Below are positions 3,254-47,800 of a stretch of 64,000 nt of DNA, in pieces. Both the position numbers and the translations under genes were made by a program. Every line of letters starts with the position of its first letter. Within the stretch, counting starts at the first letter, position 1. The DNA lies in the NCBI RefSeq assembly GCF_003334355.1, contig NZ_QOWP01000006.1; one strand, written 5' to 3'. A model generated the notes under the pieces. It was not told the DNA's origin. It searched no databases and was given only the letters and a program-made list of their open reading frames with translations. This stretch comes from Escherichia coli (lineage in GTDB: Bacteria; Pseudomonadota; Gammaproteobacteria; Enterobacterales; Enterobacteriaceae).

Positions 3254-4906
3254 TTACTGCCAGCTCACCTCACCTTTCGGTTCATAAACACTCACATCCA
3301 GCGGCGAGCTTTTCTGGATATACGCTTTCAGCACTTCGGCATCAATAAAGCCGGTATTCACATAGCCCGGTTTGTTATCAAGGCGCGGATATCCATCACC
3401 GCCGGTGGCATTGAAGTTTAATGTCGCCATACGGTAAGTTTTCGCCGGATCGACCGGTTCGCCTTTGATTTTAAGGTCGTTCAGTTTGCCGTCTTTCGCC
3501 ACAAAGCTAACGTTGGCAAATTGCGGGTAGGCACCTGAATCTGGCTTCATCTGCGCGACGGCGGTCAGGTAATCAATCACCTCTTTACCGGTCATGTCGG
3601 CATACACCACCACATTGCCGAATGGCTGCACTTTCAGCACGTTTTTATAGCTGATATCGCCTGCTTCGATAGAATCACGAATTCCGCCTCCGCTCATCAC
3701 CGCAAAGTCGGCACCAGTGCGATCCATTTGGGCTGCCAGAATCAACCGCCCCATATTGGTCTGTACAAAACGCACTTTGTCACGATCGCCTTCCAGACGA
3801 CCATTGGTTTCGCCTATTTTCACTTCCAGCTGCGCTTTGCCTTTGTTCTGGAACGGTGATAACAGCGAGATCATTTGCTGGTTTTCAGCGATTTCAGGAG
3901 TGTAAAGCACGCGCTCGCTTTTCCCGTCTTCCCAGGTCACTTTCTTCTTCAGGTTCACCGGAATCAGCTGGTAGTTAACCATTTTCATTTCGCCATTACG
4001 AAACTCAAAATCAGCCCGTCCCACGTATTTGCCCCACTCATGCGCCTGCACAATCCAGATGCCGTTTTGTTGATCTGGTTTGCATGGCGTACCCGGCACG
4101 TAATCGACCTGTTTTTTGTTTTCTGCCGCCATGCAGACCGGATCTTGCGAGTGACCACCGACGATCATCGCCAGCGATCCGGCAGGCAGCGCGCGTGCCA
4201 TCTCCACATCGCCCGGTGCGTTAGAGCCGTGCTCACCATTATCGTAATGCCCCATATGGGTCGCCGCGATAATAATGTCTGGCTTTTCTGTCTGTTGCAG
4301 CTCCTGAATCACCAGCTTCGCTTCATCGGCGGGCTTACGAAATTCGATATCAGTGAAGTATTCCGGGTTACCAATTTTTGCTGTGTCATCGGTTGTCAGC
4401 CCAATAACGGCAATTTTCAGATCCTGACGCTTAAACAGCGCCCACGGTTTAAACAGGCGCTCGCCAGTACTTTTCTGGTAGATATTCGCGGAAAGCAACG
4501 GGAACTTGGCCCACTTTTCCTGCTGGCGTAATACGGTGAGCGGATTATCAAATTCATGATTACCGATCGCCATCGCGTCATAGCCCACCAGATTCATACC
4601 GCGAAAATCAGGTTCGGCATCCTGTAAGTCAGACTCGGGCACGCCAGTGTTAATGTCGCCACCGGAAAGTAGCAGCACGCTACCGCCTTCAGCCGCAACC
4701 TCTTTGCGGATACCATCCACCAGCGTTTTTTGCGCCGCCAGACCATATTCGCCATATTCATTGCGCCAAAAATGCCCATGATGATCATTGGTATGCAGAA
4801 CTGTAATTTTGTAGGTTTTATCCTGCTCATACGCCAGAGCAGTTTCACTCGCCAGTGTAAATGTGGTTAACAGCGCTAACGCCACGCCCCGCTGCAATAA
4901 TTTCAT
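3254..4906 (-). CDS. ushA: Periplasmic 5'-nucleotidase / UDP-sugar hydrolase UshA
   Basis: ORF 3254..4906(-), 550 aa; N-terminal signal peptide (MKLLQRGVALALLTTFTLASETALA); calcineurin-like metallophosphatase motifs (DHHGH, GNHEFD). Confidence 0.93.
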   Translation of the reverse strand: MKLLQRGVALALLTTFTLASETALAYEQDKTYKITVLHTNDHHGHFWRNEYGEYGLAAQKTLVDGIRKEVAAEGGSVLLLSGGDINTGVPESDLQDAEPDFRGMNLVGYDAMAIGNHEFDNPLTVLRQQEKWAKFPLLSANIYQKSTGERLFKPWALFKRQDLKIAVIGLTTDDTAKIGNPEYFTDIEFRKPADEAKLVIQELQQTEKPDIIIAATHMGHYDNGEHGSNAPGDVEMARALPAGSLAMIVGGHSQDPVCMAAENKKQVDYVPGTPCKPDQQNGIWIVQAHEWGKYVGRADFEFRNGEMKMVNYQLIPVNLKKKVTWEDGKSERVLYTPEIAENQQMISLLSPFQNKGKAQLEVKIGETNGRLEGDRDKVRFVQTNMGRLILAAQMDRTGADFAVMSGGGIRDSIEAGDISYKNVLKVQPFGNVVVYADMTGKEVIDYLTAVAQMKPDSGAYPQFANVSFVAKDGKLNDLKIKGEPVDPAKTYRMATLNFNATGGDGYPRLDNKPGYVNTGFIDAEVLKAYIQKSSPLDVSVYEPKGEVSWQ

Positions 4907-5123
4907 ACTTCTCTCCCTGACCTGATTTCAACGTGTTGAAAAATAGTATGACGCGACATCATAGACAAGTCTGCGTCCGGTGAAGATAAATCTGCATCCA
5001 GATTAGAAATTCTGTATTCGGCGTTGAGACTTCCTTCAGACGACGCATACAGGTATGTTAGTCTGGTAATAATCACAAATAAGATCATTCTTTACATCGC
5101 AACCCTGAAAAAGTGACTTTCCT

Positions 5124-6344
5124 ATGGCAATGAGTGAACAACCCCAGCCTGTGGCGGGCGCGGCTGCGTCAACGACCAAGGCCCGAACATCGTTTGGTAT
5201 TTTAGGTGCTATCAGCCTCTCACATCTGCTGAACGACATGATCCAATCGCTGATTCTGGCGATTTATCCGCTGCTTCAGTCAGAATTTTCTCTGACATTT
5301 ATGCAGATTGGCATGATAACCCTCACCTTCCAGCTCGCCTCTTCGCTACTGCAACCAGTGGTCGGCTACTGGACCGATAAATATCCGATGCCATGGTCGT
5401 TGCCAATTGGCATGTGCTTTACCTTAAGCGGTCTGGTGCTGCTTGCGCTGGCGGGCAGTTTTGGCGCAGTTCTGCTGGCGGCGGCGCTGGTCGGTACCGG
5501 TTCATCGGTCTTTCATCCGGAATCTTCTCGCGTGGCCCGTATGGCTTCCGGCGGGCGGCATGGCCTGGCGCAATCTATCTTTCAGGTCGGCGGCAACTTT
5601 GGCAGTTCCCTGGGACCCTTGCTGGCGGCGGTGATTATCGCGCCTTATGGCAAAGGCAACGTTGCCTGGTTTGTGCTTGCGGCACTGCTGGCGATCGTGG
5701 TGTTGGCGCAAATCAGCCGTTGGTACTCGGCACAGCACCGAATGAATAAAGGAAAACCCAAAGCGACGATTATCAATCCACTGCCGCGCAATAAAGTTGT
5801 ACTGGCGGTCAGCATTCTGTTAATCCTCATTTTCTCGAAATATTTCTATATGGCGAGCATCAGCAGCTATTACACCTTTTATCTGATGCAAAAATTCGGA
5901 TTATCTATCCAGAATGCTCAGCTTCATCTGTTTGCCTTCCTGTTTGCCGTTGCGGCAGGTACGGTGATCGGCGGGCCTGTAGGGGATAAAATTGGGCGGA
6001 AATATGTGATTTGGGGCTCTATCCTCGGCGTTGCGCCGTTTACGCTGATTTTACCCTACGCCAGCCTGCACTGGACGGGGGTTTTAACGGTGATTATTGG
6101 ATTTATCCTCGCTTCGGCATTCTCTGCCATTCTGGTCTACGCTCAGGAGCTGCTTCCAGGACGTATCGGTATGGTTTCTGGACTCTTTTTCGGTTTTGCT
6201 TTTGGCATGGGAGGTCTGGGAGCGGCAGTTCTGGGGCTTATCGCCGATCACACCAGCATCGAGTTAGTCTATAAAATCTGTGCTTTCCTGCCACTATTGG
6301 GGATGTTGACCATATTCCTGCCTGATAACCGGCATAAAGACTGA
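5124..6344 (+). CDS. fsr: Fosmidomycin-resistance MFS transporter Fsr
   Basis: ORF 5124..6344(+), 406 aa; hydrophobic multi-span MFS-like profile; recognised as Fsr. Confidence 0.88.
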   Translation: MAMSEQPQPVAGAAASTTKARTSFGILGAISLSHLLNDMIQSLILAIYPLLQSEFSLTFMQIGMITLTFQLASSLLQPVVGYWTDKYPMPWSLPIGMCFTLSGLVLLALAGSFGAVLLAAALVGTGSSVFHPESSRVARMASGGRHGLAQSIFQVGGNFGSSLGPLLAAVIIAPYGKGNVAWFVLAALLAIVVLAQISRWYSAQHRMNKGKPKATIINPLPRNKVVLAVSILLILIFSKYFYMASISSYYTFYLMQKFGLSIQNAQLHLFAFLFAVAAGTVIGGPVGDKIGRKYVIWGSILGVAPFTLILPYASLHWTGVLTVIIGFILASAFSAILVYAQELLPGRIGMVSGLFFGFAFGMGGLGAAVLGLIADHTSIELVYKICAFLPLLGMLTIFLPDNRHKD

Positions 6345-6581
6345 TTTCATTGCAGCCAAAGGCAAACTTTGGCTGCATCGTTTTACAGTCGCCATAAGCC
6401 TTTCCTCTGTTAAACCGCCTTCTGTTTTCCGATCCGTGCTTTTTTTGCAGCTAATTCCATTTTTCTGCAAAATTCAATAATTATTCATGAACATCATCAA
6501 TGAAATTGTCATAAACTATTACCTGTAATTTTGGTTTTCCCGGCCAAAAATGGACAATAACCACCAGGAAAAGGAGACGGA

Positions 6582-8258
6582 ATGCATCACGCCACCCCGC
6601 TTATCACCACCATTGTTGGCGGCCTTGTGCTCGCCTTTATCCTCGGCATGCTGGCCAATAAACTACGTATTTCTCCTCTGGTGGGATATCTGTTAGCGGG
6701 TGTGCTGGCAGGACCATTCACTCCGGGCTTTGTTGCCGATACCAAGCTTGCCCCGGAACTGGCTGAACTGGGCGTCATTCTGTTGATGTTTGGCGTCGGT
6801 TTGCACTTTTCGCTGAAGGATTTGATGGCGGTAAAGGCCATCGCCATTCCCGGTGCGATCGCCCAGATAGCCGTGGCGACGCTGCTGGGTATGGCGCTCT
6901 CTGCCGTGCTGGGCTGGTCGTTAATGACCGGTATCGTGTTCGGTTTATGTCTTTCCACCGCCAGTACCGTGGTGTTACTGCGCGCACTTGAAGAACGGCA
7001 ATTAATTGACAGTCAGCGTGGGCAAATCGCCATCGGTTGGTTGATTGTGGAAGACCTGGTAATGGTTCTGACGCTGGTGTTGCTGCCCGCAGTGGCAGGA
7101 ATGATGGAACAGGGCGATGTGGGCTTTGCCACTCTTGCAGTCGATATGGGGATCACCATCGGCAAAGTGATCGCATTTATCGCCATTATGATGCTGGTAG
7201 GTCGCCGTCTGGTGCCGTGGATTATGGCACGCAGCGCGGCAACCGGTTCTCGCGAGCTGTTTACCCTGTCGGTGCTGGCGCTGGCGTTAGGGGTTGCCTT
7301 TGGTGCGGTAGAGCTGTTTGATGTCTCCTTTGCACTCGGTGCGTTCTTTGCCGGGATGGTACTGAACGAGTCTGAACTGAGTCACCGTGCCGCCCACGAT
7401 ACGCTGCCATTGCGCGACGCGTTTGCGGTGCTGTTTTTTGTCTCCGTCGGGATGTTGTTTGATCCGTTAATTCTGATTCAGCAACCGCTGGCAGTGCTGG
7501 CGACGCTGGCGATTATTCTGTTTGGTAAGTCGTTAGCCGCATTTTTCCTGGTGCGACTGTTTGGTCACTCCCAACGTACGGCATTAACCATCGCCGCCAG
7601 CCTGGCGCAGATTGGTGAGTTCGCGTTTATCCTGGCGGGACTGGGAATGGCATTGAATTTACTGCCGCAGGCCGGACAAAACCTGGTACTGGCAGGGGCG
7701 ATCCTGTCGATTATGCTCAACCCGGTACTGTTCGCACTACTGGAGAAATATCTGGCGAAGACCGAAACGCTGGAAGAGCAGACGCTGGAAGAGGCAATCG
7801 AAGAAGAGAAGCAGATCCCAGTGGATATTTGCAACCATGCGCTACTGGTGGGTTACGGTCGTGTAGGCAGCCTGCTGGGGGAGAAATTGCTCGCCTCTGA
7901 TATTCCGCTGGTGGTGATTGAGACGTCACGAACCCGTGTTGATGAGCTGCGAGAGCGCGGGGTCCGCGCAGTATTGGGCAATGCGGCGAACGAAGAAATT
8001 ATGCAACTGGCGCATCTGGAATGTGCAAAATGGCTGATCCTGACGATTCCCAACGGTTATGAAGCGGGTGAGATTGTGGCATCTGCCCGCGCGAAAAATC
8101 CGGATATTGAGATTATTGCCCGCGCCCATTATGACGATGAAGTGGCGTATATCACCGAACGTGGTGCGAATCAGGTAGTGATGGGCGAGCGTGAAATCGC
8201 CCGTACCATGCTGGAACTGCTGGAAACGCCACCGGCGGGTGAGGTGGTGACGGGGTAA
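6582..8258 (+). CDS. ybaL: CPA2-family cation:proton antiporter YbaL (Kef-type with C-terminal RCK/TrkA-N domain)
   Basis: ORF 6582..8258(+), 558 aa; membrane domain followed by Rossmann motif LLVGYGRVGSLLG typical of Kef/RCK. Confidence 0.9.
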   Translation: MHHATPLITTIVGGLVLAFILGMLANKLRISPLVGYLLAGVLAGPFTPGFVADTKLAPELAELGVILLMFGVGLHFSLKDLMAVKAIAIPGAIAQIAVATLLGMALSAVLGWSLMTGIVFGLCLSTASTVVLLRALEERQLIDSQRGQIAIGWLIVEDLVMVLTLVLLPAVAGMMEQGDVGFATLAVDMGITIGKVIAFIAIMMLVGRRLVPWIMARSAATGSRELFTLSVLALALGVAFGAVELFDVSFALGAFFAGMVLNESELSHRAAHDTLPLRDAFAVLFFVSVGMLFDPLILIQQPLAVLATLAIILFGKSLAAFFLVRLFGHSQRTALTIAASLAQIGEFAFILAGLGMALNLLPQAGQNLVLAGAILSIMLNPVLFALLEKYLAKTETLEEQTLEEAIEEEKQIPVDICNHALLVGYGRVGSLLGEKLLASDIPLVVIETSRTRVDELRERGVRAVLGNAANEEIMQLAHLECAKWLILTIPNGYEAGEIVASARAKNPDIEIIARAHYDDEVAYITERGANQVVMGEREIARTMLELLETPPAGEVVTG

Positions 8259-8289
8259 ACGGTGGTTGCCGGATGTAAAATATGAAAAA

Positions 8290-8380
8290 TATGTAGGCAT
8301 GATAAGACGCGCCAGCGTCGCATCAGGCATCGAGAGCCAAATGCCAGATGCGGCGTGAACGCCTTATCTGGCCTACGAAC
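8290..8380. repeat. REP/BIME cluster (two inverted REP units)
   Basis: GTAGGCATGATAAGACGCGCCAGCGTCGCATCAGGCA and TGCCAGATGCGGCGTGAACGCCTTATCTGGCCTAC between convergent ybaL and gsk. Confidence 0.85.
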
Positions 8381-8390
8381 CGACGATAAC

Positions 8391-9695
8391 TTAACGATCC
8401 CAGTAAGACTCTTCCAGGCTGTCTTCACGCTCCGGCAAGCCGCGCGTTAAACGAGGTGAATGCTGGTTCAGTACCTGATAGCTCACACGGTTAGCATATT
8501 TACACACCTGCGCTAACGATGAATAAGTTAACCAGGTGAATTTATGTTTGCTGGAGTTTGGTACGTTGCTACGATGGTAGCTGTTGGCGGTAATGTCATG
8601 CAGCAACGCTGCCAATGCGCCATCCCCCGCTCCATTAGTGTTCATGATTTTTTCCGGCCCGCCCATGTACGGCGCAATGTGCGAATATACACGCAGCGGA
8701 TTCTGGCAATCCTTGTGGCGCATGGCGCGGCTAAACTCATACTGGTTGAATTCCGCTATAGCGCCCGGCAGCAGCGGATGCTGGGTTTTACGTTTCGCTT
8801 CGTCTTCGGTAAAGCCCGCCATATACAAGCCGATTGGCCCGGCGGTGCACAGCACCAGATCTACCCAGTCCAGCGCCTTGTCAGATGCCAACAACGGATC
8901 GCTTTCTCCGGTCAACGCTTCGGCTTCATCTTCGTTCATCGCAAGGATAGAGACGTGGTCTTTGAGGAATTGCTGCCACCACTGCGGATTCTCGGCAATG
9001 ACAAACTTAGTTCCCAGCGTCAGCACCACCGGTACGTTATATTTCTTCGCGTACTCAATGGCTTTCATGGTTGCTTCCGGCATGGGTTCACCCGGCTTGC
9101 AACGCACCAGATAAGAGGTGAGAACCAGTGCCGAGGCTCCGGCAATCACATCTTCCGGAATACTTTCAGCCCGCAGCTGGTTCATGTGGCCAGGGCTGAT
9201 AGCAAAGGTACGTTCCCCGGACTCGCCAATCAGCGTAAAGCAACGACCAATCGGACCATCCACGCCTTGTAGATAGTTAAGATCGGTACGGCTGGAGGTG
9301 TTACACAGGTAACGATAGGCATAGCTGCCAATTTCAATATTGCTGCACATGACGCCCAGCAGCACCGAACGGTCGTCCGCGAGCACCGAGTAGTTGTGCA
9401 TGGTGTTACCAATAGTGCCACCCGCAAACTGATGGGTAATCAGGTTTTTCTGTTTTAGTTCCTGATAAAGCGCTTCGGCTACGTCATCCTCAATCACCAG
9501 TGAATGCCCGACGCTTAATCCATAACGCTCAATGAATTCGTCATCCACTTTCGCTTCAATATCGACCAGCGTTTGATCGATACCCACTACCCAGGCGGCG
9601 CTGGTTTCGTTTTCTGGCTGGAACTGCTGAAGCAGCGGATCGCGTGCATTTACAGGGAAGTAATGTTTGGATTTACGTTTACCGGGAAATTTCAT
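8391..9695 (-). CDS. gsk: Inosine-guanosine kinase
   Basis: ORF 8391..9695(-), 434 aa; pfkB-family sugar/nucleoside kinase features; recognised as Gsk. Confidence 0.92.
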   Translation of the reverse strand: MKFPGKRKSKHYFPVNARDPLLQQFQPENETSAAWVVGIDQTLVDIEAKVDDEFIERYGLSVGHSLVIEDDVAEALYQELKQKNLITHQFAGGTIGNTMHNYSVLADDRSVLLGVMCSNIEIGSYAYRYLCNTSSRTDLNYLQGVDGPIGRCFTLIGESGERTFAISPGHMNQLRAESIPEDVIAGASALVLTSYLVRCKPGEPMPEATMKAIEYAKKYNVPVVLTLGTKFVIAENPQWWQQFLKDHVSILAMNEDEAEALTGESDPLLASDKALDWVDLVLCTAGPIGLYMAGFTEDEAKRKTQHPLLPGAIAEFNQYEFSRAMRHKDCQNPLRVYSHIAPYMGGPEKIMNTNGAGDGALAALLHDITANSYHRSNVPNSSKHKFTWLTYSSLAQVCKYANRVSYQVLNQHSPRLTRGLPEREDSLEESYWDR

Positions 9696-22800: not shown

Positions 22801-23180
22801 GTGCTCAGAATTTTGCGCGTTTCTTCGTCGTTATCGACATCGCTAAGTGCTGTTAACGCCGCGGTCGCCTGGCGCATTTTTTCCGGCGCTTCAGCGACTT
22901 TTTGCCGTAGCTGAACTGTCTCTTCTTTTATGCGATCGATTTTATCGAGGGTGGCTAATGTATCTGTCAGATCCTGCTGCACCAGTTTGTCCTGAGCAGA
23001 AAGATCTTTTTGTTTATTTAGTGAGTCAAGTTGCGCCTGCAGGTCCGCTTTTGTCGGCAGATCACCATTCGATGACGCCCGCGCAAACGCCGTGTTCTGG
23101 CATAACAAGACAAAAACAAAAGCAATAAATGCTGAAAAAACAAAATGCCGTGATCGTTTGTAATACTGGAACATAGTCAT
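19818..23180 (-). CDS. mscK: Potassium-dependent mechanosensitive channel MscK (KefA), MscS family
   Basis: ORF 19818..23180(-), 1120 aa; signal peptide, long coiled-coil periplasmic domain, multi-TM region and C-terminal MscS-like domain. Confidence 0.93.
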   Translation of the reverse strand: MTMFQYYKRSRHFVFSAFIAFVFVLLCQNTAFARASSNGDLPTKADLQAQLDSLNKQKDLSAQDKLVQQDLTDTLATLDKIDRIKEETVQLRQKVAEAPEKMRQATAALTALSDVDNDEETRKILSTLSLRQLETRVAQALDDLQNAQNDLASYNSQLVSLQTQPERVQNAMYNASQQLQQIRSRLDGTDVGETALRPSQKVLMQAQQALLNAEIDQQRKSLEGNTVLQDTLQKQRDYVTANSARLEHQLQLLQEAVNSKRLTLTEKTAQEAVSPDEAARIQANPLVKQELEINQQLSQRLITATENGNQLMQQNIKVKNWLERALQSERNIKEQIAVLKGSLLLSRILYQQQQTLPSADELENMTNRIADLRLEQFEVNQQRDALFQSDAFVNKLEEGHTNEVNSEVHDALLQVVDMRRELLDQLNKQLGNQLMMAINLQINQQQLMSVSKNLKSILTQQIFWVNSNRPMDWDWIKAFPQSLKDEFKSMKITVNWQKAWPAVFIAFLAGLPLLLIAGLIHWRLGWLKAYQQKLASAVGSLRNDSQLNTPKAILIDLIRALPVCLIILAVGLILLTMQLNISELLWSFSKKLAIFWLVFGLCWKVLEKNGVAVRHFGMPEQQTSHWRRQIVRISLALLPIHFWSVVAELSPLHLMDDVLGQAMIFFNLLLIAFLVWPMCRESWRDKESHTMRLVTITVLSIIPIALMVLTATGYFYTTLRLAGRWIETVYLVIIWNLLYQTVLRGLSVAARRIAWRRALARRQNLVKEGAEGAEPPEEPTIALEQVNQQTLRITMLLMFALFGVMFWAIWSDLITVFSYLDSITLWHYNGTEAGAAVVKNVTMGSLLFAIIASMVAWALIRNLPGLLEVLVLSRLNMRQGASYAITTILNYIIIAVGAMTVFGSLGVSWDKLQWLAAALSVGLGFGLQEIFGNFVSGLIILFERPVRIGDTVTIGSFSGTVSKIRIRATTITDFDRKEVIIPNKAFVTERLINWSLTDTTTRLVIRLGVAYGSDLEKVRKVLLKAATEHPRVMHEPMPEVFFTAFGASTLDHELRLYVRELRDRSRTVDELNRTIDQLCRENDINIAFNQLEVHLHNEKGDEVTEVKRDYKGDDPTPAVG

Positions 23181-23307
23181 GATGAATGAAGGTTTCTGAA
23201 CCTGAAGAACGACCTGAAAAAGTCAAACCGCAAGAATATCACGACGCAGTGAACCAGAATAGCAACGACGAAAATGTCCAGGAAAAATCCTGGAGTCAGA
23301 TTCAGGG

Positions 23308-23955
23308 TTATTCGTTAGTGGCAGGATTACGAAGCGTGGGGCACAGGAGATACATCTCCAGTAAGATGGCAACGTAATCGCGGGCTTCTTTTTTAAGATC
23401 AAAAGATTGCGGGGCAAAGAGCCAGTTTTCCATCAGGCCGGAAATATAGCCGCGCATAATAATTGCTGCGCGACGCGTCATTAAATCCGCAGGCAACATT
23501 TTCGCTTCAATACAATGTTTTAACGTTTGTTCTATACGGTCATAACTTTCCAGACAGAGATTACGTTGTGCCTGTTGCACAACAGCCATTTCTCCGACAA
23601 ATTCGCATTTGTGGAATATAATCTCCATCAATAATCGACGCCGTTCTTCTGTCACCGTGGATTCAAGAACATGAATTAATATCTCTCTTAATACTGAGAG
23701 TGGATCGCCAGGGAATTTTGCCTGATACTCAAGCTCTAGTTCACCAATATTGGATTCTGACAGTTCCCAGATCTCACTGAACAAATCCGACTTGTCTTTA
23801 AAATGCCAGTAGATTGCACCGCGCGTAACGCCAGCTGCTTTTGCAATCTCGCCCAGCGAGGTGGATGATACCCCCTGCTGTGAGAAAAGACGTAGAGCCA
23901 CATCGAGGATGTGTTGGCGCGTTTCTTGCGCTTCTTGTTTGGTTTTTCGTGCCAT
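23308..23955 (-). CDS. acrR: TetR-family repressor AcrR
   Basis: ORF 23308..23955(-), 215 aa; N-terminal TetR HTH ([25 protein letters not shown]); divergent from acrAB. Confidence 0.95.
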
Positions 23956-23983
23956 ATGTTCGTGAATTTACAGGCGTTAGATT

Positions 23984-24007
23984 TACATACATTTGTGAAT
24001 GTATGTA
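23984..24007. promoter_or_regulatory. AcrR operator: 24 bp perfect inverted repeat in the acrR-acrA divergent promoter region
   Basis: TACATACATTTGTGAATGTATGTA read directly; perfectly palindromic apart from the central bases. Confidence 0.85.
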
Positions 24008-24096
24008 CCATAGCACGACGATAATATAAACGCAGCAATGGGTTTATTAACTTTTGACCATTGACCAATTTGAAATCGGACACTCGAGGTTTACAT

Positions 24097-25290
24097 ATGA
24101 ACAAAAACAGAGGGTTTACGCCTCTGGCGGTCGTTCTGATGCTCTCAGGCAGCTTAGCCCTAACAGGATGTGACGACAAACAGGCCCAACAAGGTGGCCA
24201 GCAGATGCCCGCCGTTGGCGTAGTAACAGTCAAAACTGAACCTCTGCAGATCACAACCGAGCTTCCGGGTCGCACCAGTGCCTACCGGATCGCAGAAGTT
24301 CGTCCTCAAGTTAGCGGGATTATCCTGAAGCGTAATTTCAAAGAAGGTAGCGACATCGAAGCAGGTGTCTCTCTCTATCAGATTGATCCTGCGACCTATC
24401 AGGCGACATACGACAGTGCGAAAGGTGATCTGGCGAAAGCCCAGGCTGCAGCCAATATCGCGCAATTGACGGTGAATCGTTATCAGAAACTGCTCGGTAC
24501 TCAGTACATCAGTAAGCAAGAGTACGATCAGGCTCTGGCTGATGCGCAACAGGCGAATGCTGCGGTAACTGCGGCGAAAGCTGCCGTTGAAACTGCGCGG
24601 ATCAATCTGGCTTACACCAAAGTCACCTCTCCGATTAGCGGTCGCATTGGTAAGTCGAACGTGACGGAAGGCGCATTGGTACAGAACGGTCAGGCGACTG
24701 CGCTGGCAACCGTGCAGCAACTTGATCCGATCTACGTTGATGTGACCCAGTCCAGCAACGACTTCCTGCGCCTGAAACAGGAACTGGCGAATGGCACGCT
24801 GAAACAAGAGAACGGCAAAGCCAAAGTGTCACTGATCACCAGTGACGGCATTAAGTTCCCGCAGGACGGTACGCTGGAATTCTCTGACGTTACCGTTGAT
24901 CAGACCACTGGGTCTATCACCCTACGCGCTATCTTCCCGAACCCGGATCACACTCTGCTGCCGGGTATGTTCGTGCGCGCACGTCTGGAAGAAGGGCTTA
25001 ATCCAAACGCTATTTTAGTCCCGCAACAGGGCGTAACCCGTACGCCGCGTGGCGATGCCACCGTACTGGTAGTTGGCGCGGATGACAAAGTGGAAACCCG
25101 TCCGATCGTTGCAAGCCAGGCTATTGGCGATAAGTGGCTGGTGACAGAAGGTCTGAAAGCAGGCGATCGCGTAGTAATAAGTGGGCTGCAGAAAGTGCGT
25201 CCTGGTGTCCAGGTAAAAGCACAAGAAGTTACCGCTGATAATAACCAGCAAGCCGCAAGCGGTGCTCAGCCTGAACAGTCCAAGTCTTAA
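24097..25290 (+). CDS. acrA: Multidrug efflux periplasmic adaptor AcrA (lipoprotein)
   Basis: ORF 24061..25290(+); start at MNKNRGF giving 397 aa; lipobox LTGC; membrane-fusion-protein family. Confidence 0.95.
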   Translation: MNKNRGFTPLAVVLMLSGSLALTGCDDKQAQQGGQQMPAVGVVTVKTEPLQITTELPGRTSAYRIAEVRPQVSGIILKRNFKEGSDIEAGVSLYQIDPATYQATYDSAKGDLAKAQAAANIAQLTVNRYQKLLGTQYISKQEYDQALADAQQANAAVTAAKAAVETARINLAYTKVTSPISGRIGKSNVTEGALVQNGQATALATVQQLDPIYVDVTQSSNDFLRLKQELANGTLKQENGKAKVSLITSDGIKFPQDGTLEFSDVTVDQTTGSITLRAIFPNPDHTLLPGMFVRARLEEGLNPNAILVPQQGVTRTPRGDATVLVVGADDKVETRPIVASQAIGDKWLVTEGLKAGDRVVISGLQKVRPGVQVKAQEVTADNNQQAASGAQPEQSKS

Positions 25291-25309
25291 CTTAAACAGG
25301 AGCCGTTAA

Positions 25310-28462
<3,153 letters not shown>

Positions 28463-28480
28463 TACAACGTGTAATCACTA

Positions 28481-28504
28481 AGGCCGCGTAAGCGGCCTTT
28501 TTTA
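28481..28504 (+). terminator. Rho-independent terminator of acrAB
   Basis: AGGCCGC-GTAA-GCGGCCT hairpin followed by TTTTTTAT immediately after the acrB stop. Confidence 0.8.
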
Positions 28505-29007
28505 TGCATAACCTACGAACATTAAGGAGTAATTGAACCACCAACTCAGGATCTCATACGAAAACCAGTATTAACCACGGATAAAATTCATAAAAAATAC
28601 TGATTGTTAGTTAATTTATATTAAGTAGCGCTAATAGATTTAATAATCCATAATCATTTAGAGGCTATTCTTAATTATTTGCGGTAATTCTTTATTCATT
28701 CCTCGGTTATTACGTCATATTCAGAGCAATCCTGGTATTAGTGTCACCAATTTCATCTGGCGATAATCCTGAAATGTTATGAATAGTTCGAGCAAACTGC
28801 TTTTACCTGCTGCGGGTTAGTGCTAGTATGAAAAAGTGAGTCCTGTCCCGCTTCCTTCCTAATTGTAATTTTTCGTAATAATGCGATGAAAACCTGCAAA
28901 GAGTGGCTTATAGTTAAGCTAACAAACGAGAGGGCAAGTCCAGGTCAGTAAGTTTTTTCCATCCCGAAAGGTGTCCGTTAGTTCAACCGCTAAGAAGGGG
29001 ACGCGTT

Positions 29008-29382
29008 ATGGATGAATACTCACCCAAAAGACATGATATCGCACAGCTTAAGTTTCTCTGTGAAACCCTGTATCATGACTGCCTTGCAAACCTTGAAGAA
29101 AGCAATCATGGCTGGGTAAACGACCCAACCTCGGCGATCAACCTCCAGTTGAATGAACTGATTGAGCATATTGCGACCTTCGCACTTAATTACAAAATTA
29201 AGTATAATGAAGACAATAAGCTCATTGAGCAGATCGACGAATATCTGGATGACACCTTTATGTTGTTCAGTAGTTATGGTATTAATATGCAGGATCTTCA
29301 GAAATGGCGGAAGTCAGGTAATCGACTATTCCGTTGTTTTGTCAATGCGACGAAAGAGAATCCTGCGAGTTTATCTTGTTAG
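29008..29382 (+). CDS. tomB: Hha toxicity modulator TomB (YbaJ)
   Basis: ORF 29008..29382(+), 124 aa; SD AAGAAGGGG upstream; directly precedes hha. Confidence 0.9.
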
Positions 29383-29407
29383 AATTATTACAACCATGGG
29401 TAGAAGT

Positions 29408-45313: not shown

Positions 45314-45354
45314 AGCGCAATAACCTTACGTTGTTGTTATAAGTACAGAGGTCA

Positions 45355-47800
<2,446 letters not shown>

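Follow-up and report, generated by a model that had tools for sequence, protein, structure and literature searches.

Does the DNA between the divergently transcribed acrR and acrA genes of this Escherichia coli genome hold a wild-type binding site for the AcrR repressor, or does the inverted repeat found there have another origin and another role? The stretch analyzed (the window) is 64,000 nucleotides long, and the original prediction, made from the letters alone, placed the repressor site of the efflux pump operon within positions 23956 to 24096. We are highly confident that the repeat at 23984-24007 is the AcrR operator overlapping the acrA promoter, with a marbox as positive input, and that all of these elements are wild type.

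The assignment of 23956-24096 to the acrR-acrA divergent control region was exact, as these positions are precisely the 141-bp gap between the two ATG codons (Table 1). All four surrounding genes pass the NCBIfam equivalog cut-offs for their products (MscK, AcrR, AcrA and AcrB), with AcrR scoring 419 bits against a cut-off of 271 (NF007949). Alignment of acrR and the operator to a reference, which had been proposed as a check, gave zero differences from E. coli K-12 MG1655, and the intergenic region, acrA and acrB are likewise free of nucleotide differences. The expectation of a full-length acrR was also correct: its 215 codons form an unbroken reading frame without IS element, frameshift, premature stop or substitution relative to K-12. 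Compared with the acrR-acrAB system of E. coli K-12 (Ma et al. 1996; Su, Rutherford & Yu 2007, as cited in PMC9769551 and PMC10597343), the operator, intergenic region, acrR, acrA and acrB are nucleotide-identical here, and the sole difference is the genomic background. Positions 22716-25716 of the window are the reverse complement of MG1655 484000-487000 with a single difference, which falls within mscK. It should be noted that the window is not K-12 itself, an identification rejected because BLAST places the whole window at ~99.5% identity to MG1655, with REP-type indels. Of two indels relative to MG1655, one at ~1103-1239 in the copA-ybaQ gap adds about 101 bp among REP/BIME-type copies (GCCGGATGCGGCGTGAACGCCTTATCCGGCCTAC), and the other, at ~11842-11896 in the adk-hemH gap, removes about 104 bp. 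A 6.6-kb stretch (22798-29397, comprising part of mscK, acrR, acrA, acrB and sequence beyond) has zero differences from MG1655, whereas about 50 SNPs lie in the flank between 15.5 and 20.2 kb of the window; mscK has 8 nucleotide differences, every one synonymous. The contrast between the difference-free stretch and the SNP-rich flank suggests a mosaic or recombinant segment.

Table 1. Features of the acrR-acrAB locus, in window coordinates.
Feature	Positions	Strand	Basis and remarks
mscK	19818-23180	-	NCBIfam equivalog cut-off for MscK passed
acrR, TetR-family repressor gene	23308-23955	-	ORF list; 215 codons + stop, intact
marbox (MarA/SoxS/Rob site) ATGGCACGAAAAACCAAACA	23936-23955	-	first 20 nt of acrR coding sequence
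acrR-acrA divergent control region, 141 bp	23956-24096		acrR ATG at 23955 (-), acrA ATG at 24097
acrA promoter -35, TTTACA	23982-23987	+	consensus scan; shares first 4 nt of operator
AcrR operator TACATACATTTGTGAATGTATGTA	23984-24007		inverted repeat 10+4+10
operator left arm TACATACATT	23984-23993		
operator core TGTG	23994-23997		asymmetric
operator right arm AATGTATGTA	23998-24007		
acrA promoter -10, TACCAT	24006-24011	+	consensus scan; shares last 2 nt of operator; 18-bp spacer
acrA transcription start (predicted), G24017 or A24018	24017-24018	+	6-7 nt past -10; GAC at 24017-24019
acrA mRNA leader	24019-24096	+	TCGGAC 24076-24081; Shine-Dalgarno GAGG 24086-24089
acrA, periplasmic adaptor	24097-25290	+	397 codons + stop; NCBIfam NF011604, 885 bits vs cut-off 765
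acrB, RND permease	25313-28462	+	1049 codons + stop; NCBIfam NF011706, 2422 bits vs cut-off 2150

The repeat matches, at 24 of 24 positions, the AcrR binding site of the acrAB promoter quoted in passages of PMC9769551 and PMC10597343 that cite Su et al. 2007, and it is identical to that of MG1655, which bears out the claim of a wild-type repressor site. Its symmetry had been overstated. The site had been described as a perfect 24-bp palindrome, but only its 10-nt arms are perfect (100% complementary, 4 nt apart); the TGTG core is asymmetric and 20 of the 24 positions are symmetric. The AcrR site is described in PMC10597343 in the same terms, as two 10-bp inverted repeats with 4 bp between them. 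The reverse complement reads TACATACATTCACAAATGTATGTA, with CACA opposite the central TGTG, and because of this asymmetry the operator pattern search matched one strand only. TACATACATTTGTGAATGTATGTA has a single exact occurrence in the 64 kb (23984-24007, + strand), and no other match with up to 3 mismatches was found in the window or in 100 shuffles of it. Gel shifts (EMSA) have shown that AcrR binds the acrAB promoter fragment (PMC9769551, PMC10597343), and a dimer of dimers, with two AcrR dimers per site, has been suggested (PMC10597343).

Apart from the AT-richness of the intergenic region, nothing speaks for the palindrome being a chance feature. A perfect inverted repeat with 10-nt arms and a spacer of 0-10 nt arose in 12 of 5000 dinucleotide-preserving shuffles of the 141-bp region, the shuffled windows were empty of matches, and the arms are invariant across about 30 named genera and unclassified Enterobacterales; the probability that we assign to chance is negligible. 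Further AcrR sites in the window were considered and rejected, as the next-best matches to the 24-bp operator have 8 mismatches and occur at chance frequency. At a threshold of 11 or fewer mismatches, 171 sites were counted on both strands of the 64-kb window compared with about 231 in shuffles, so that the predicted AcrR sites with 9-12 mismatches in recent papers (PMC9769551, PMC10597343) are at chance frequency, and their weight comes only from the accompanying gel shifts. Two other inverted repeats were noted. A 9-nt repeat, TCGTGCCAT (23947-23955) and ATAGCACGA (24010-24018), is complementary at 8 of 9 positions and flanks the operator on both sides; in it, the marbox core GCAC is paired with another GCAC just past the -10 hexamer. 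The other has perfect 10-nt arms (AGAGGTCATAACTGGTATGACCTCT, 45347-45371) and lies in the ybaV-fadM gap, where it appears similar to a FadR box upstream of fadM.

The operator had also been predicted to be centered between the acrR and acrA starts. It does lie between them, but off-center, separated from the acrR ATG by 28 bp and from the acrA ATG by 89 bp, with the center of the repeat at 23995.5 and that of the intergenic region at 24026. Its position coincides with the acrA core promoter, since the TTTACA-TACCAT pair is the only sigma-70-like site on the + strand in 23800-24250 and the operator fills the interval from -35 to -10, overlapping both hexamers. Counted from the predicted +1 at G24017, the operator extends over about -33 to -10, and bound AcrR should for this reason block RNA polymerase. 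Given this predicted start, repression by promoter occlusion is the natural reading of the geometry. The start lies 6-7 nt past the -10 hexamer and agrees with cryo-EM work on RamA bound at the acrA promoter of Klebsiella (PMC8811837), where start site and hexamers were taken from the EcoCyc E. coli annotation, the activator site is centered at about -71.5 (class I) and initiation was primed with GpA and CTP, since GAC stands at 24017-24019 here. In Yersinia enterocolitica, the AcrR motif spans -52 to -29 relative to the start codon of acrR and also overlaps the acrAB -35 (PMC4403819), an offset from the acrR ATG equal to that found here.

To investigate the conservation of this arrangement, loci were collected from bacterial assemblies, one genome per species, with the AcrR protein alone as the query, so that the search was blind to the repeat. 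Of the 80 loci recovered, 79 were used (AcrR 60-99% identical), the 80th being without the acrR N-terminus, and they span Escherichia, Citrobacter, Enterobacter, Klebsiella, Kosakonia, Serratia, Erwinia, Winslowiella and others. A divergent acrA across a gap of 139-149 bp is present at all 79 loci. The closest match to the operator, with 0-3 mismatches, is placed 27-29 bp away from the acrR ATG and retains 9-10 of 10 arm pairs, and the first 20 nt of acrR form a marbox with 0-1 mismatch at every locus. The divergent gap of this length, the operator at this offset, the marbox in acrR codons 1-7 and the leader with its Shine-Dalgarno sequence are thus shared with other Enterobacterales, including Klebsiella (PMC8811837), Salmonella (PMC5727465) and Yersinia enterocolitica (PMC4403819). 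Differences include the core, which reads TATG, TTTG, CGCG, TGCG or CGGG in window orientation where TGTG is found here, and in some genera one uncompensated change in the acrA-proximal arm. Among the 73 distinct sequences, mean conservation per position is 1.00 in the left arm, 0.98 in the right arm and 0.82 in the core, where position 23995 falls to 0.49; the average is 0.78 over the 28 bp that separate the operator from the acrR ATG and 0.87 over the rest of the gap. It should be noted that the mean column identity of the 141-bp region is also 0.87, and the arms appear only moderately above background in a region that is well conserved as a whole. Taken together, these alignments show purifying selection on the arms, the spacing and the marbox.

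Conservation of this kind could in principle reflect the core acrA promoter alone, with the dyad symmetry incidental. The interval from -35 to -10 and the repeat are almost coextensive, and promoter positions are among the invariant columns: in the 73 sequences, the -35 hexamer is conserved at 0.90-1.00 per position and T1, A2, A5 and T6 of the -10 hexamer are invariant. Promoter spacers, however, are normally unconserved in sequence, and this one shows little or no variation across genera at positions 23988-23993 and 23999-24005 but varies in its central 4 bp, which is the pattern of two symmetric half-sites rather than of a promoter. The same arms also stand beside a regulator gene on plasmid pKTa005_1 in otherwise different flanking sequence. 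With the gel shifts cited above added, we consider it very improbable that the 24 bp are conserved as promoter only.

The repeat could also act not as a protein site but as a nucleic-acid hairpin, in the form of a DNA cruciform or of a stem-loop in the RNA of the acrR leader. Folding of either strand as RNA gives a stem of 10 bp with -9.1 or -9.2 kcal/mol (z about -3.1), and the repeat would lie in the acrR leader if acrR transcription started to the right of 24007, where promoter-like hexamers occur on the - strand at 24050-24021. Such stability, however, is given by any 10-bp inverted repeat. In the 50 distinct sequences that were compared as a hairpin, 8 of the 10 pairs are constant and no pair has both partners changed; at the other two pairs, pairing is lost in 8 cells and replaced by G-U in 2. 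All of the arm substitutions are in the acrA-proximal arm and none is compensated, so that arm variants have 9 rather than 10 pairs. There is no T run after the stem, no terminator call on the repeat and no Rfam match, and the predicted acrA start at 24017/18 is downstream of the repeat, which would place it outside the acrA mRNA. The sequence is conserved and the pairing is not, which favors a protein site, and a hairpin role is to our judgment extremely improbable.

Several further observations concern the presumed acrA leader, downstream of the operator. The block 24068-24096 is close to invariant across genera. In Salmonella, CsrA binds the acrAB leader at AAGGA (primary) and TCGGA (secondary) (PMC5727465); AAGGA is absent from the E. 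coli leader (24019-24096), in which only TCGGAC is present. A second block, AAACGCAGCAATGGGTTT at about 24028-24045, is nearly invariant from Escherichia to Erwinia, and a literature search found no known site that explains it. Within 24026-24047, ATAAACGCA and TGGGTTTAT can pair to form a stem, in which 2 pairs have double changes, a number indistinguishable from controls, and the fold of the leader is no better than that of shuffles (z -0.6). On the opposite strand, candidate acrR promoters consist of TTAATA (24050-24045) with TATATT or TATTAT at 24028-24021, of which the -10-like part is conserved and the -35 is not; the AAACGCAGCAATGGGTTT block could be this acrR promoter region. At 24054-24067, the leader contains a tandem direct repeat, TTGACCA TTGACCA, which is replaced in most other genera by TGATCCATTGATCAA, with two GATC (Dam) sites that are missing in Escherichia. 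A second promoter arising from the TTGACCA repeats was rejected on inspection, as no -10-like hexamer lies at the right spacing. A terminator-like call on the minus strand within acrA itself (24108-24126, codons 4-10) corresponds to a CAGAGG-N7-CCTCTG stem that is close to invariant across genera, which may simply reflect the coding sequence of the lipoprotein signal peptide.

The search for a MarA/SoxS/Rob marbox upstream of acrA that accompanied the original prediction was successful, with the site located inside acrR, just outside 23956-24096. It has 0 mismatches to AYNGCACNNWNNRYYAAAYN and is the only perfect match in the 64 kb. The site is in reverse orientation relative to acrA, with the consensus on the opposite strand, and its center at 23945.5 corresponds to -71.5 or -72.5 for a predicted start at 24017 or 24018, respectively, the former agreeing with the class I activator position on the acrA promoter in PMC8811837. 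Class I sites are defined by reverse orientation and a center between -56 and -85 (PMC12052159), and given the predicted start, the marbox falls into this class. Published work agrees with this location: MarA binds acrAB marbox fragments (PMC11633057), and a 2024 preprint (PMC11642870) assigns the marbox to the initial 20 nt of acrR, reports that it is needed for full acrAB activation and shows that complete deletion of acrR loses the marbox, while keeping the first 21 nt of acrR restores activation. An acrR deletion is therefore not equivalent to an acrR point mutant, because deletion of the whole ORF also takes the marbox, a warning that is already in the literature. The comparison of the 80 loci (about 30 named genera and unclassified Enterobacterales) adds that synonymous sites in acrR codons 2-6 are frozen, with GCA in 80/80, CGA in 80/80, ACC in 77/80 and AAA conserved too, whereas at four-fold sites from codon 9 onward the reference codon is kept in 18-66% of loci. 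These frozen sites point to selection at the DNA level beyond the protein code, to which selection on translation initiation could contribute, and the constraint on the N-terminal MARKTK of AcrR (23938-23955) looks to come from the marbox DNA that overlaps it and not from the protein. The possibility of a second marbox at ATAGCACGA was considered and rejected; it has about 7 mismatches by hand count and was not reported in a scan of 23800-24200 at 3 or fewer mismatches.

The repressor encoded next to the operator is AcrR. All 215 residues are identical to the E. coli AcrR of PDB entries 2QOP and 3BCG, and the Pfam domains TetR_N (residues 16-62, E 1.9e-19) and TetR_C_2 (84-202, E 3e-53) are present, in line with a TetR-type helix-turn-helix at the N-terminus and a C-terminal ligand domain of the AcrR/MAATS type. 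The recognition-helix segment is invariant in 80/80 proteins, and the C-terminal domain averages 0.75 identity. Among the PDB sequence matches listed, none is named as an AcrR-DNA complex, and the exact AcrR sequence occurs only in 2QOP and 3BCG.

A related question is whether the operator is shared with, or even mainly used by, another TetR-family protein such as EnvR/AcrS or a relative on a mobile element. For instance, plasmid pKTa005_1 (NZ_CP147085.1, 162 kb) carries at 4329-9466 a divergent TetR-family regulator that is 38% identical to AcrR, together with genes for an RND permease 68% identical to AcrB and for an RND adaptor that contains a frameshift. The operator of this cassette, TACATACATTTATGAATGTATGTA, has arms identical to those of the AcrR site, the regulator shares the AcrR recognition-helix motif TRGAIYWHF, and no marbox was found in the cassette. 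From these similarities, cross-regulation between the pKTa005_1 regulator and chromosomal acrAB is conceivable. The second-best NCBIfam match for AcrR is the model of the acrEF/envCD regulator (179 bits), and EnvR/AcrS reportedly represses acrAB (Hirakawa et al. 2008). Sharing of this kind would nevertheless add to the AcrR explanation rather than replace it, since the AcrR gene adjoins the site in 79/79 loci and AcrR binds the fragment in vitro, and no envR gene lies in the window. We regard a predominant or shared use of the site by another repressor as unlikely.

The acrR-acrAB control region can also be compared with related repressor systems. QacR of Staphylococcus aureus, a sequence relative of AcrR through the helix-turn-helix (E about 4e-8), is likewise a TetR-family multidrug-binding repressor that acts at a long inverted repeat (IR1) over an efflux-gene promoter, with two dimers proposed as for AcrR. 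On IR1, two QacR dimers occupy one long inverted repeat, but this site is 28 bp long and unrelated in sequence to the AcrR operator, and qacR-qacA differs from acrR-acrA in having no marbox-type activator input. TetR, the founding member of the family, is only a weak match to AcrR (NF010319, 27.9 bits), and TetR-tetO resembles the present system in its divergent regulator and efflux genes, an operator in overlapping promoters and ligand-triggered release. In the tet system, a single dimer binds each 15-bp palindromic tetO and the region contains two such operators, in contrast to the single 24-bp site with 10-bp arms here. After the Salmonella orthologue, the relatives of known structure closest to AcrR are TtgR (E about 2e-44) and MtrR (about 2e-32). 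Both TtgR-ttgABC of Pseudomonas putida and MtrR-mtrCDE of Neisseria are, like AcrR, local repressors of RND pumps, but their operators differ and no marbox lies inside the regulator gene. The half-site of the TtgR operator presumably resembles AATGTATGTA.

Within E. coli, the region is present in 5424 of 5426 complete genomes. The operator with 3 bp on each side is identical in 5383 of these 5424; 41 differ at one position, including 21 with the core variant TATG, and 1 differs at two. At least 40 of the 5424 genomes are without a contiguous acrR and control region. Two examples of interruption were examined. In strain Z1323CEC0008, a chicken isolate (NZ_CP148461.1, 1379-2620), an IS481-family element lies in the acrR-acrA gap at a position equivalent to about 23976/77 of the window, between marbox and operator, which puts about 1.1 kb between the activator site and the acrA promoter. 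In strain 98202, a human blood isolate (NZ_CP173557.1), acrR is truncated by one of two IS1A copies, and the other lies between acrR and acrA.

The AcrR operator is thus a real, functional and already known feature, and the locus as a whole is a canonical wild-type acrR-acrAB control region in which nothing is new. No observation contradicted this identification. By the mechanism that we favor, each 10-bp arm would be read by the helix-turn-helix of one AcrR subunit, possibly with two AcrR dimers per site, a stoichiometry that follows the published dimer-of-dimers proposal, and AcrR bound over about -33 to -10 would keep RNA polymerase from the promoter. Pump substrates such as ethidium, rhodamine 6G and proflavin, which according to the literature bind the C-terminal domain of AcrR, would release it from the DNA, and MarA, SoxS or Rob bound in reverse orientation to the marbox (acrR codons 1-7, about -71.5) would activate acrAB as class I activators. 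Since all parts are wild type, normal basal and inducible expression of acrAB is predicted. More speculatively, inputs beyond the three known ones (AcrR operator, marbox and CsrA site) may be present in the control region, with AAACGCAGCAATGGGTTT acting as an unrecognised regulator site, an acrR promoter or a 5' stabilising stem, and with repressors of mobile elements cross-regulating acrAB and AcrR regulating them in turn; we would give this extended picture a small, though not trivial, probability.

For the original prediction, the analysis brings three corrections: the palindrome is of the form 10+4+10, it is placed off-center on the acrA core promoter, and the marbox lies within acrR. The relevance to multidrug resistance that had been claimed for the intact acrR holds in part, as derepression mediated by acrR is excluded, but marR, soxR, rob and other loci that set acrAB expression lie outside the window. 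AcrAB overproduction and reduced susceptibility to many drugs arise recurrently by way of loss-of-function alleles of acrR, IS insertions and operator changes. None of these routes is present in the window and, therefore, efflux-based resistance in this strain would need another source, such as marR, soxR, rob or other pumps. More generally, the comparison across genera provides a template for scoring this locus, in which the arms are invariant, the core is free, the operator lies 27-29 bp from the acrR ATG and the marbox occupies acrR codons 1-7.
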